A stretch of 27,814 bases of DNA from Candidatus Woesearchaeota archaeon (lineage in GTDB: Archaea; Nanobdellota; Nanobdellia; Woesearchaeales; UBA10216), in the NCBI GenBank assembly GCA_016180145.1, contig JACPBT010000007.1, forward strand, positions 1 to 27,814, in the 5' to 3' direction. Shown here piece by piece: positions 5,057 to 13,773 of this stretch. Position 1 is the first letter of the stretch; the number at the start of each line of letters is the position of its first letter. The notes below the pieces were generated by a model, which was not told the origin of the DNA, did not search any database, and was given only the letters and a program-made list of their open reading frames with translations. The translations under genes were made by a program, and so were the position numbers.

Positions 5057-6841
5057 CTAAAAATCCCCCCGGAACTTAACATAAAGCAGCTCAACAAAAA
5101 CAAGCAACAACGCAAAAACGGCAATCAAAACATCAAAATGCCTCGTTTCAGTAAAAGGAACAGACACGTCAGCAGAGGAAACATCCTCAGAAAAACGCCT
5201 GAACCCTGAACTGACTGAAGACTCCTGAACACTCAAAAGATTGGCAGCAACAGACCTGCCATCATAAGAATAAAAACCAGCCTTGTCAAAAAGAACACGG
5301 TCAGCCTTCAAAACACCAAGAGGCGTGCCCACATTCTGCTTCTGAACAACGCTAATCTGTCCCGTCTTCACATTAAAGCTTGACAAAGACTCAGCCCCAA
5401 CAAGAAAATGAACAAGCCTGCTCCAAAAAACAGGATAAGTAACAGAACTCTTAAAACTGCTGTAATCATCAAGCAAACCGTAATAAATAACCTTACCAGA
5501 ACCAAGCCCCGAAAGCGCAACAACAGGACTGCCACCCGCACTGACAAGAGTGACAGCGCCTTCCTTTGGCTTTGCAGTCAAATAAGCCTCATTAACACCA
5601 AAATCAACACCATCAGTAAAGAAATTGGTAACATTAACAAAATTAACAGAAGACTCGCCAACACCTGCCAACACAACAGGCAGAAAACCAATCTTAGGCA
5701 AATCCTTCTGCCCCACAATTATTACACTACTGCCATTGCTTACTGCACGCTCAATATCCCTGTAATAGCCAGGAAGCATAAGCTTAGGGTCAAACCGGCT
5801 CAAAACAATAACATCATAATCAAAACTATTCACAACAGGAGGCCTCGCAACATCCAGCCTAATACCAGAAGAAGCAGAGAGGGCAGCCTCCACATTGCTT
5901 GAATCCGCATTCGTTATAAGCAAAACCCTCGCCTTAAAACCATCAGGAACACTCACAAAAGCGGCATTATCCGCCTTAAACCCGTCATCAACAACAAGCT
6001 TCACCTCTGTAAGACCAGGCAATGTGTCAAAATAAAACTCATCCCACGAGCCGGCACCCAAAGACAAAACAGCCTCATCCTTCAGAGAATTACCATTAAC
6101 AACCTGAACCTTAACCTTTTCAGCCACATCATTAAAATTCCTAACAGAAACAGCAGTCAAAGAAGAAGCAGGAGAAACGCCAACAATCCCGACATTTGAA
6201 ACATTACCCGAAAAATCAAAAAAACGGACACGCGCATTCCTGGAAGCAGAACGCCTCGCAACAAACGGGTCAATACCCTCAGTCGCAATAAAATCACTCA
6301 AAACAACAATATCACCCTTATCAACAAGCTCCTTCGCAACAAGAATGGCATCACCCAAATTGGAAGTGGTATCCAAAGGCTTCAAAGAACGCAAAACAGA
6401 ACGCGCCTCCTCAGCACCACGAGACTCAAGAACAACACGAGGCACATTGGCAGCAAGAACAATACTAACCTTGCCATCAACAAGCTCCAAAGCCTTACCA
6501 ACAGCAGCCTCAAAACGGCTTGAAGAGCCATAATCAGACTGCATACTCGCAGAAGCATCCAAAACAATAACAGTCCTACCCCCACCAAATGAAGAGACAT
6601 CAGCAAAAAAACCCATAACAGAAAACGCAAGCAAAGAAAGAATCAGCAACTGAAGCAAAAACAGCAAATTACGAACAAGCTGCTGAAAAAAGGAATGAAA
6701 CCTCGTAACACCAGAATCCTTAACAAAAAACATCAAACTCGGAATAACCTGCTCCAAAGGCTTTGAACGCCTAAGATAAAGAATAACAAAAGGAACAAGA
6801 ACAAGAAACGCAAAACCACCAGCAACACGTTCAAAAGGCAT
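5057..6841 (-). CDS. BatA N-terminal domain + VWA domain membrane protein
   Basis: BatA-like start (LVLVPFVILYLRRSKP...IPSLMFF), MIDAS motif IVLDASASM, VLSDF, and a C-terminal TM. Its stop abuts the ATG of the next VWA gene. ATG 6841 is preferred over the track's TTG 6856. Confidence 0.85.
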   Translation of the reverse strand: MPFERVAGGFAFLVLVPFVILYLRRSKPLEQVIPSLMFFVKDSGVTRFHSFFQQLVRNLLFLLQLLILSLLAFSVMGFFADVSSFGGGRTVIVLDASASMQSDYGSSSRFEAAVGKALELVDGKVSIVLAANVPRVVLESRGAEEARSVLRSLKPLDTTSNLGDAILVAKELVDKGDIVVLSDFIATEGIDPFVARRSASRNARVRFFDFSGNVSNVGIVGVSPASSLTAVSVRNFNDVAEKVKVQVVNGNSLKDEAVLSLGAGSWDEFYFDTLPGLTEVKLVVDDGFKADNAAFVSVPDGFKARVLLITNADSSNVEAALSASSGIRLDVARPPVVNSFDYDVIVLSRFDPKLMLPGYYRDIERAVSNGSSVIIVGQKDLPKIGFLPVVLAGVGESSVNFVNVTNFFTDGVDFGVNEAYLTAKPKEGAVTLVSAGGSPVVALSGLGSGKVIYYGLLDDYSSFKSSVTYPVFWSRLVHFLVGAESLSSFNVKTGQISVVQKQNVGTPLGVLKADRVLFDKAGFYSYDGRSVAANLLSVQESSVSSGFRRFSEDVSSADVSVPFTETRHFDVLIAVFALLLVFVELLYVKFRGDF

Positions 6842-13103: not shown

Positions 13104-13457
13104 ATGAACATCAAAAAAAAAGGCTTTGTTTGGGACTACAGCAAAAAGTCGGACATACTGAATATTCATAAAGCCGGAAGAAAAGTTGACGGAAGCGCAG
13201 AGTTTGAAGACTTCACTATTGACTTTGACGGAGAAGGGCAAGTGGCAGGCATAGAAATAGCTTATGCTTCTGAATTCCTAAGCGACGCAGGAATACAAAA
13301 AGAGCAGCTTGCAAAAATAAAAGAAGCCGAGATAGCTGTGAACAAGAGAAATAACTATGCAGTGATATGGATTAAGTTAAGCCTGCCAAATCTTTCTGAA
13401 CCGGGAGAAGCTATTGTTGAGAAAAAGGTTACCCTTCCTGTTCCAATAATCAACTGA
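13104..13457 (+). CDS. DUF2283 family protein (putative antitoxin)
   Basis: WDYSKKSDILNI...SAEFEDFTIDFDGEGQVAGIEIAYAS matches the DUF2283 pattern YD...DILY...D.D..G.V.GIEI..AS. Confidence 0.8.
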   Translation: MNIKKKGFVWDYSKKSDILNIHKAGRKVDGSAEFEDFTIDFDGEGQVAGIEIAYASEFLSDAGIQKEQLAKIKEAEIAVNKRNNYAVIWIKLSLPNLSEPGEAIVEKKVTLPVPIIN

Positions 13458-13458
13458 T

Positions 13459-13466
13459 AAAAAAAA
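13459..13466 (-). terminator. Oligo-T terminator of tRNA-iMet
   Basis: A run of 8 T on the minus strand directly after discriminator A73. Confidence 0.55.
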
Positions 13467-13612
13467 TAGCGGGGGCTGGATTTGAACCAACGACTTCCCA
13501 AGATGCAAGCCTTGACTAGCATCTTCTGTGGGTCTCCCAACCAGGAGGTTATGAGCCGTCCGAAGCAACAGGTCACTGCTACACCGGGCACTCCTAGCTG
13601 CCCTACCCCGCT
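13467..13612 (-). tRNA. Initiator tRNA-Met (CAT) with three introns (13581-13558, 13549-13534, 13526/13525-13495); CCA not encoded
   Basis: Spliced sequence: AGCGGGG TA GGGC AGCTAGGAGT GCCC G GTG|GG CT CAT A|A CCCAC A(G)|GTC GTTGG TTCAAAT CCAGC CCCCGCT A. It has an A1:U72 pair, three G-C pairs at 29-31:39-41, and the anticodon at 13551-13553. Each intron forms a BHB-like structure. Confidence 0.9.
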
Positions 13613-13637
13613 ATGACTAACTGGTTTTTTATGAATG

Positions 13638-13650
13638 TTTATAAAGGTTT
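13638..13650 (-). promoter_or_regulatory. BRE/TATA promoter of tRNA-iMet
   Basis: Minus strand AAACC-TTTATAAA, 26 nt upstream of tRNA nucleotide 1. Confidence 0.65.
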
Positions 13651-13773
13651 AGGAAGGGCTGGTGATTTCAAGTTATAGCAACCCGCATTACCCAAAATCC
13701 AAAAAAAGTGATAATTTTATATAGAAACAGCTCCAGAATGACATAAACATGCAACCTTGCGAGGCAATCTAAA

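Follow-up and report, generated by a model that had tools for sequence, protein, structure and literature searches.

The motif of archaeal tRNA introns termed bulge-helix-bulge (BHB) consists of a 4-bp helix and two 3-nt bulges on opposite strands, each of which is cut after its second base. According to reviews, three introns are the maximum per tRNA gene, a load described in Thermoproteales, which possess an (alpha-beta)2 splicing endonuclease, EndA (PMC4033280, PMC4090602). Among DPANN archaea, ARMAN-2 (Micrarchaeum) carries non-canonical and multiple tRNA introns, for example two in a T-loop (Fujishima et al., 2011, PMC3239211). The part of Kaneta et al. (2018, PMC5829648) covered here reports tRNAs predicted for a Woesearchaeota and a Pacearchaeota metagenome-assembled genome (MAG), links DPANN alpha4 EndAs to increased tRNA gene disruption, and takes the incompleteness of predicted tRNA sets to point to hidden disrupted genes. 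A 2026 preprint on Asgard archaea describes up to five intervening sequences in one tRNA gene, with approximately 30% missed by tRNAscan-SE, mostly in the D-arm, as well as a preference of insertions for BHB motifs and repeated gains. The subject of the present analysis is an initiator tRNA-Met (iMet) gene in a 27,814-nt stretch of DNA, here called the window, which comprises positions 1 to 27,814 of contig JACPBT010000007.1 of Candidatus Woesearchaeota archaeon (assembly GCA_016180145.1). An earlier reading of the letters of this stretch (the original prediction) had proposed that the gene is interrupted by three introns. Comparison with relatives indicates that the locus is very probably a functional three-intron iMet gene, with introns at positions 29/30, 37/38 and 45/46 of the mature tRNA, and that it belongs to a lineage in which orthologues carry from none to five introns.

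Structure of the gene and identity of the spliced tRNA

The source assembly is a fragmented MAG of 108 contigs and 859 kb that is 85.75% complete. Its assignment to a Woesearchaeota-like host, as had been supposed, agrees with the nearest records of the window's RNase HII, which belong to Candidatus Woesearchaeota, Nanoarchaeota and Pacearchaeota MAGs, several of them from groundwater. The iMet precursor is 146 nt long and runs from window position 13612 to 13467 on the minus strand, so that the predicted coordinates and length stand. In silico excision of gene positions 32-55 (24 nt), 64-79 (16 nt) and 88-118 (31 nt) yields a flawless 75-nt tRNA-Met(CAT) according to ARAGORN, and the minimum free energy (MFE) structure of the spliced form is a clean cloverleaf of -35 kcal/mol. 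Removal of any one or two of the insertions gave no 75-nt cloverleaf in the no-intron mode of ARAGORN; when introns 1 and 3 are removed, the program still calls a 91-nt tRNA-Met(CAT) in which intron 2 is treated as an extra arm. The claim that a canonical initiator tRNA appears only after three removals was thus borne out. The proposed segments of the gene are as follows.

13582..13612, minus strand: exon 1, 31 nt; 5′ strand of the acceptor-stem, D-arm, position 26 and anticodon-stem positions 27-29; the spliced form matches with 100% identity at 13612-13582 (BLAST)
13558..13581, minus strand: intron 1, 24 nt, between positions 29 and 30; strict motif with outer and inner helices (hBHBh′)
13550..13557, minus strand: exon 2, 8 nt, GGCTCATA; positions 30-37, including the CAU anticodon
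13534..13549, minus strand: intron 2, 16 nt, at the canonical position 37/38
13526..13533, minus strand: exon 3, 8 nt, ACCCACAG; positions 38-45, with the boundary set by the variable loop AGGUC
13495..13525, minus strand: putative intron 3, 31 nt, between positions 45 and 46; relaxed BHB
13467..13494, minus strand: exon 4, 28 nt; positions 46-48, T-arm, 3′ strand of the acceptor-stem and A73

The terminal pair A1:U72 together with the discriminator base A73 is the mark of archaeal and eukaryotic initiators. Both are present in the spliced product, the gene beginning with AGCGGGG and ending with CCCCGCT-A, and the CCA sequence is not encoded at its 3′ end. The anticodon loop of the product is CUCAUAA, a 7-nt loop with the CAU anticodon, U33 and A37. 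The initiator pairs G29-G31:C39-C41 arise only once introns 1 and 2 have been removed, since exon 1 supplies G29, exon 2 supplies G30-G31 and exon 3 supplies C39-C41, as had been noticed from the sequence at the outset.

The unspliced gene escapes standard detection, which was also anticipated by the original prediction. In its default mode, ARAGORN reported no tRNA anywhere in the window; the Rfam tRNA model gave no match to the unspliced gene either at the gathering threshold or at E <= 10, and the locus is missing among the 28 matches of this model in the whole 859-kb assembly. Because the gene is invisible to both programs, automated annotation would report a genome without an initiator tRNA.

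Orthologues and the distribution of introns in the order

A BLAST search with the locus was performed against 40 relatives, of which 24 belong to the same family and 16 to other families within the order, and matched the iMet locus in 32 of the 40. A total of 32 genes, comprising the window's gene and 31 orthologues, were segmented by spliced alignment to the mature consensus. All 32 splice in silico to 75 nt and differ from the window's product at 0-15 positions; the differences that fall in stems are paired (29/45, 52-54/64-66, and 6/7 with 68/69). The five intron-less orthologues differ from this product at 10-11 of the 75 positions, mostly by paired changes in stems, and the gene of genome G019, with two introns at 15/16 and 53/54, encodes a mature product that is one D-loop base off that of the window. 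The numbers of introns among the 32 genes are as follows.

No intron: 5 genes
One intron: 7 genes
Two introns: 4 genes
Three introns: 8 genes, the window's included
Four introns: 6 genes (G022, G018, G012, G017, G008, G031)
Five introns: 2 genes (G011, G006)

At least one intron is therefore carried by 26 of the 31 orthologues and three to five introns by 15, and the set at 29/30, 37/38 and 45/46 is common to seven. Nine intron positions were identified in total (7/8, 13/14, 15/16, 20a/21, 29/30, 37/38, 45/46, 53/54 and 59/60), the 45/46 intron sitting at 46/47 in G012 and G017. The two five-intron genes, L006:1412-1623 (G011, 212 nt) and L007:1410-1618 (G006, 209 nt), lie on the minus strand and are interrupted at 15/16, 29/30, 37/38, 45/46 and 59/60. 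The 4-bp helix and the two 3-nt bulges persist in nearly all introns of the lineage; most introns of the four- and five-intron genes have a central helix (H) with 4/4 pairs in register, and the others have one with 3/4. The Rfam tRNA model (RF00005) scored the five intron-less orthologues at 57-62 bits and two genes with only the 37/38 intron at 49-50 bits; of the orthologues tested that have non-canonical or multiple introns, none was recognised.

These counts do not support the suggestion that a triple-intron iMet gene is unusual, and the novelty of the locus is lowered by them, as the original prediction had itself allowed for the case that such genes prove routine in the lineage. As judged from the sequences of the relatives, heavily interrupted iMet genes are common among them, and the window's gene is best regarded as one more case of something already known. 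Of greater interest than the locus in the window are the pattern across the lineage and the orthologues with four and five introns.

BHB motifs and covariation of the three introns

The motif of intron 1 is the strict hBHBh′ that had been described from the letters, in every detail. Its outer helix (h) consists of G24:C58 and C25:G57, its central helix CCGG:UCGG is paired 4/4, its bulges are UG|U and AC|G, and its inner helix (h′) comprises seven in-register pairs, including AGCA:TGCT. Among 14 orthologues with this intron, 98.5% of cells are standard pairs vs. 16-44% when the partner strand is slid; five pairs are altered on both sides, and none of 500 shuffles matches the score. Intron 2 has a central helix CUCA:UGGG (4/4) and bulges UA|A and AG|A of 3 nt each, and a 4-bp inner helix in register occurs in the more distant orthologues of G008, G010 and G031. 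With the 45/46 cut, the bulges of intron 3, AG|A and AA|G, are in register, and so is its inner helix of 6 bp. Among nine orthologues of intron 3, all six pairs of this inner helix are altered on both sides, the covariation score is matched by none of 500 shuffles, and 80% of cells pair vs. 33-48% when slid. The observed in-register pairing was matched by 1, 315 and 15 of 20000 shuffled versions of introns 1, 2 and 3, respectively, and a chance origin of the pairings is unlikely. When copies of the introns that might reflect transposition were sought elsewhere in the genome, only chance-level short matches were found.

The placement of intron 3 was left partly open by the original prediction, which gave 44/45 or 45/46 as its position, 31-32 nt as its length, and 8 nt and 7-8 nt as the lengths of the inner exons. 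The cut is placed at 45/46 because all orthologues then share the variable loop AGGUC; an intron of 31 nt and two inner exons of 8 nt each are retained on this basis, and the 44/45 option becomes the less likely one. The perfect central helices claimed for introns 2 and 3, CTCA:TGGG and CCCA:TGGG, both exist, and the latter lies one base off register at the 45/46 cut. Since a perfect in-register central helix for intron 3 (CCAC/CCAU:GUGG, 4/4) is present in G024, G006 and G009, the motif appears to have been strict ancestrally and to have been relaxed in the window's clade.

Expression signals and uniqueness of the locus

The following signals were read from the sequence around the gene.

13638..13653, minus strand: promoter, with the TATA box TTTATAAA at 13645..13638 and an A-rich stretch resembling a B recognition element just upstream
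13459..13466, minus strand: run of eight T residues directly after A73

The TATA box stops 25 nt short of the mature 5′ end. In most of the 32 loci, TTTATAAA or a one-base variant occurs 24-25 nt upstream; six of the 32 have it a few bases farther out. The T8 run is likely to be an archaeal transcription terminator, and T-rich tracts follow the gene in most orthologues.

The original prediction had raised the possibility that another, intron-less iMet gene exists. No second iMet-like locus was identified in the 859-kb assembly by blastn-short and pattern scans, in which exons 1 and 4 occur only at this locus, nor did BLAST with the window's gene reveal a second iMet-like match in any relative. 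A second tRNA with a CAU anticodon is encoded on contig C66 and contains one long canonical intron. Because this tRNA has a G1:C72 pair and lacks the GGG:CCC run, it is of the elongator Met or Ile2 type and not an initiator.

The same DNA in independent samples

The intron-containing stretch of the gene was matched without any difference by contigs of four groundwater metagenome runs from two studies (2017 and 2020). The whole gene is located on one contig in three of the four runs and on two overlapping contigs in the fourth, and no contig that joins the exons directly, as an intron-less joint would, was found in the four runs. Exon depth is 10-17 times the depth of the flanks, inflated because related organisms share the exons.

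Relatives in the same runs share the exons and diverge from the window exactly at the intron boundaries. One contig departs from the window's sequence at 13595 and enters a 15/16 D-loop intron as in G011, and related strains on contigs of runs X1, X3 and X4 (window 13542-13546 and 13595) carry either an intron 2 of 18 nt (+2) or an additional 15/16 intron. Populations with different intron sets coexist in the same groundwater.

Alternative explanations

Several observations weigh against a functional three-intron gene. A permissive BHB search combined with ARAGORN "splices" many sequences into tRNA-like products, so that folding after deletion is by itself weak evidence and the case stands on the comparative data. 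The inner helix of intron 2 has only 2 bp (CC:GG), offset by one bulged U, and the central helix of intron 3 has only two of its four pairs in the 45/46 register. The MFE fold of the precursor does not contain the three BHB motifs, nor do the motifs arise spontaneously in the folds of its intermediates, and although the cores of all three motifs (H and h′) are mutually compatible, they lie approximately 14 kcal/mol above the MFE when forced. RNA runs were looked for and none was listed, the runs that hold the locus being listed as DNA. The body of an EndA was found in the own assembly neither as a PF01974 or PF02778 match nor by tblastn. Finally, a second, intron-less iMet gene could conceivably sit outside the 85.75%-complete assembly.

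The alternative that survives best keeps the same gene and introns and cuts intron 3 elsewhere, either at 44/45, which removes gene positions 87-117 and leaves the variable loop AAGUC, or as a 32-nt intron (87-118), which leaves the 4-nt loop AGUC. Its basis is the perfect 4-bp helix CCCA:UGGG, a one-base slip that is paired 4/4 and makes the 5′ bulge 4 nt; the fold with this helix is only 0.5 kcal/mol above the MFE, strict geometry measured from it puts the cuts at 86|87 and 118|119, and ARAGORN accepts all three spliced variants. However, the intron-less orthologues and all others without intron 3 read AGGTC at positions 44-48, which the carriers reach only by the 45/46 cut (46/47 in G012 and G017), and with a 44/45 cut position 45 would be A, C or U, although the tRNA hardly varies elsewhere. 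Moreover, in G024, G006 and G009 the central helix is paired 4/4 in the 45/46 register, where the inner helix abuts the bulge. A cut other than 45/46 is consequently improbable.

A far smaller probability is assigned to a decaying pseudogene with unremoved insertions, the working iMet gene lying in the unassembled 14% of the genome. The incompleteness of the assembly, in which the EndA gene is not assembled, and the lack of a listed RNA run would fit this explanation, but the exons are nearly invariant over 32 genomes while the splice motifs of the divergent introns are preserved by compensatory changes, every insertion sits exactly at a BHB, and the promoter and the T-tract are conserved. In addition, BLAST detected no second iMet-like match in the relatives, including G010, G015 and G031, which are 95-99% complete and whose iMet genes have three to four introns. 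An assembly or chimera artefact in the metagenome bin as the origin of the insertions can practically be dismissed: the MAG is indeed fragmented (108 contigs) and its exon depth is inflated by relatives that share the exons, but the identical intron-containing stretch occurs without direct exon joints in four runs of two studies, and orthologous genes with homologous introns occur in MAGs of other projects.

Proposed maturation pathway

In the proposed pathway for the three-intron gene, transcription from its own TATA promoter would produce a precursor of approximately 150 nt, in which EndA would cut three BHB motifs: the strict one at 29/30 (24 nt), the canonical one at 37/38 (16 nt) and the relaxed one at 45/46 (31 nt). 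The ligase RtcB would join the exons of 31, 8, 8 and 28 nt into the 75-nt tRNA, and CCA would be added after ligation. Neighbouring motifs share nucleotides: the outer helix of intron 1 uses G57 and C58, which are needed by intron 2, and the outer helix of intron 2 uses C81 and C82, which are needed by the central helix of intron 3; the motif of intron 1 also takes up the 3′ strand of the D-stem. Given these shared nucleotides, the precursor would have to refold between cuts, and splicing would probably take more than one round. A strictly ordered pathway of removal was considered and is not endorsed, since all three cores are compatible and only the outer helices overlap, at nucleotides 58 and 82.

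Splicing machinery of the lineage

An RtcB ligase is encoded in the source genome (G000:C61:3021-4169; PF01139, E = 8.4e-145). The last 51 bases of contig C93 (G000:C93:3001-3052) encode MEEKVKAYISDERVMTE, the first 17 codons of an EndA-like open reading frame (ORF). In G014, EndA is flanked by two neighbour genes which, in the window's genome, end contigs C93 and C68; judging from these contig ends and the EndA N-terminus at the end of C93, the EndA gene probably falls in an assembly gap, and the two contigs are probably adjacent.

Exactly one EndA ORF with one PF02778 and one PF01974 domain was identified in 38 of the 41 genomes, the others being G020, G038 and the window's own assembly, and no second copy was found above the cut-off, even in the closed genome G040. 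The EndA of relatives usually has 177-199 aa, and 244 aa in G029 owing to an N-terminal extension. Its best solved relatives are the alpha subunit of N. equitans (E = 3e-36) and the alpha4 EndA of M. jannaschii (E = 2e-30), and the alignment to the latter contains a single one-residue gap over residues 48-195. Within these alignments, neither the insert of 6 residues that the N. equitans alpha subunit carries nor one of the type of the Crenarchaea-specific loop (CSL) or ASL was found, and the "L3 loop" of Kaneta et al. (2018) was not located in the EndA of relatives. The EndA type, which was to be classified following the original prediction, thus appears from sequence to be an alpha4-like architecture devoid of known broad-specificity loops in the relatives, the own gene being represented by its first 17 codons; a very divergent beta subunit beside it is conceivable.

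A broad-specificity endonuclease had been thought necessary for such a gene. This view finds no support in the single alpha-type EndA of the relatives, which has no CSL/ASL insert, or in the strict motif kept by most introns. Because nearly all introns keep the 4-bp helix and the two 3-nt bulges, an enzyme that is position-independent and motif-strict could suffice to remove most introns of the lineage. A lysine-rich N-terminal extension of 20-65 residues was observed in the EndA of L041 (G029, 244 aa) and in L044 and L039 (G014 and G018, 195-199 aa) and is lacking in the 177-aa forms; such an extension could add non-specific RNA binding.

Other tRNA genes and the neighbourhood of the locus

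The Rfam tRNA model detected only 14-24 tRNA genes per genome in G000 (the window's genome), G006, G011, G014, G031 and G040; the closed genome G040, which is 100% complete, yielded 14, and G031, which is 99% complete, yielded 20. With so few found even when the genome is closed, neither completeness checks that use tRNAs nor codon-usage inferences can be relied on for these DPANN archaea until the hidden genes have been found. A home-made SPLITS-like census of the 17 long tRNA candidates of the window's genome, using the permissive BHB search and ARAGORN with up to three removals, was dropped, as it returned mutually contradictory "tRNAs" and wrong solutions for the iMet gene as well.

Class-II-looking tRNAs, with a long variable arm, G73 and a Ser-like acceptor-stem, were observed with Ile-type anticodon loops, namely CTTATAA (UAU) and CTGATAA or CCGATAA (GAU), at the following loci.

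G000:C80:1883-1970, minus strand: class-II-like tRNA with Ile anticodon
G000:C108:4138-4244, minus strand: class-II-like tRNA with Ile anticodon
G000:C102:~6728-6810, plus strand: class-II-like tRNA with Ile anticodon
L061, L069, L072 (G017), L065 (G001) and L062 (G016): class-II-like tRNAs with Ile anticodons in relatives

Two of these tRNAs align as tRNA at 54-57 bits in Infernal. A normal class-I tRNA-Ile(UAU) is also present at C65:3079-3170, and related class-II-like copies in other genomes carry UGA, CAG, UAA or GAA. Hidden introns, an unusual tRNA-Ile and mis-decoding tRNAs are among the possibilities. The 59/60 introns in the T-loops of different tRNA genes (G000:C108:4138-4244 and the iMet orthologues) end alike, in ...TGAAAG|TC or ...TGAAAA|TC; this likeness is partly forced by pairing with the conserved T-loop sequence TTCA, and it may also reflect the spread of one intron type between genes.

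Two same-strand ORFs that overlap the iMet gene (13355-13591 and 13377-13568) have no Pfam match and were taken as spurious. The iMet gene has as its neighbours a DUF2283 gene and a giant ORF for a secreted protein (2342 aa, plus strand, from 13774), and no homing endonuclease gene flanks the locus. The 161-bp spacer at 13613-13773, between the iMet gene on the minus strand and the giant ORF on the plus strand, holds the tRNA promoter and presumably a divergent promoter for the giant gene as well.

Implications

For translation to be initiated in the window's organism, a single small RNA apparently has to pass through three endonuclease and ligase reactions in succession. A wider proposal, which falls somewhat short of being probable, is that in Woesearchaeales, where iMet introns occupy at least nine positions among 33 genomes of one order, a plain alpha4-type EndA alone removes iMet introns from many sites, including those with relaxed motifs, and that most tRNA genes probably accumulate introns. 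If this were true, heavy fragmentation of tRNA genes would occur without the specialised (alpha-beta)2 or epsilon2 enzymes, and the accepted model of co-evolution between EndA type and intron load would be challenged. Genes with four or five introns would also go beyond the three that peer-reviewed reviews give as the maximum. With zero to five introns in a nearly invariant tRNA, the orthologues constitute a natural data set for intron gain and loss and can test whether an alpha4-type EndA copes with non-canonical and relaxed motifs, intron 3 of the window's iMet gene being a substrate that would test a motif-strict enzyme.

Comparison with known systems

The phenomenon is already described in kind, in Thermoproteales, in DPANN archaea (Kaneta et al., 2018) and in Asgard archaea (2026 preprint). 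No paper on multi-intron initiator tRNA genes in Woesearchaeota was found in the literature covered, outside which the supplement of Kaneta et al. (2018) and Sugahara et al. (2007) lie. As far as the covered part of Kaneta et al. (2018, PMC5829648) goes, the window's iMet gene is a hidden disrupted gene of the sort suspected there. Asgard archaea, the subject of the 2026 preprint, belong to another superphylum, and the preprint makes no mention of DPANN or of initiator tRNA. ARMAN-2 resembles the present case as a member of the DPANN whose tRNA introns include non-canonical and multiple ones, but its EndA is a three-unit epsilon2 enzyme with an ASL loop (PMC3239211), whereas a single ORF that combines one N-terminal with one catalytic domain is found here.

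The closest likeness in gene structure is to Thermoproteales (Pyrobaculum, Thermofilum, Caldivirga; Sugahara et al., 2007, 2008, reviewed in PMC4033280 and PMC4090602), in which several short, protein-spliced introns occur per gene at canonical and non-canonical positions, are bounded by BHB or relaxed BHB motifs and are missed by standard finders. In contrast to these organisms, the host described here is a DPANN archaeon (Woesearchaeota) and not a crenarchaeon, and the EndA of its lineage is a single alpha-type protein that is collinear with the alpha4 enzyme of M. jannaschii, in place of an (alpha-beta)2 enzyme that carries the Crenarchaea-specific loop. Unlike the Thermoproteales genes with their maximum of three introns, the iMet orthologues of this lineage reach four and five.

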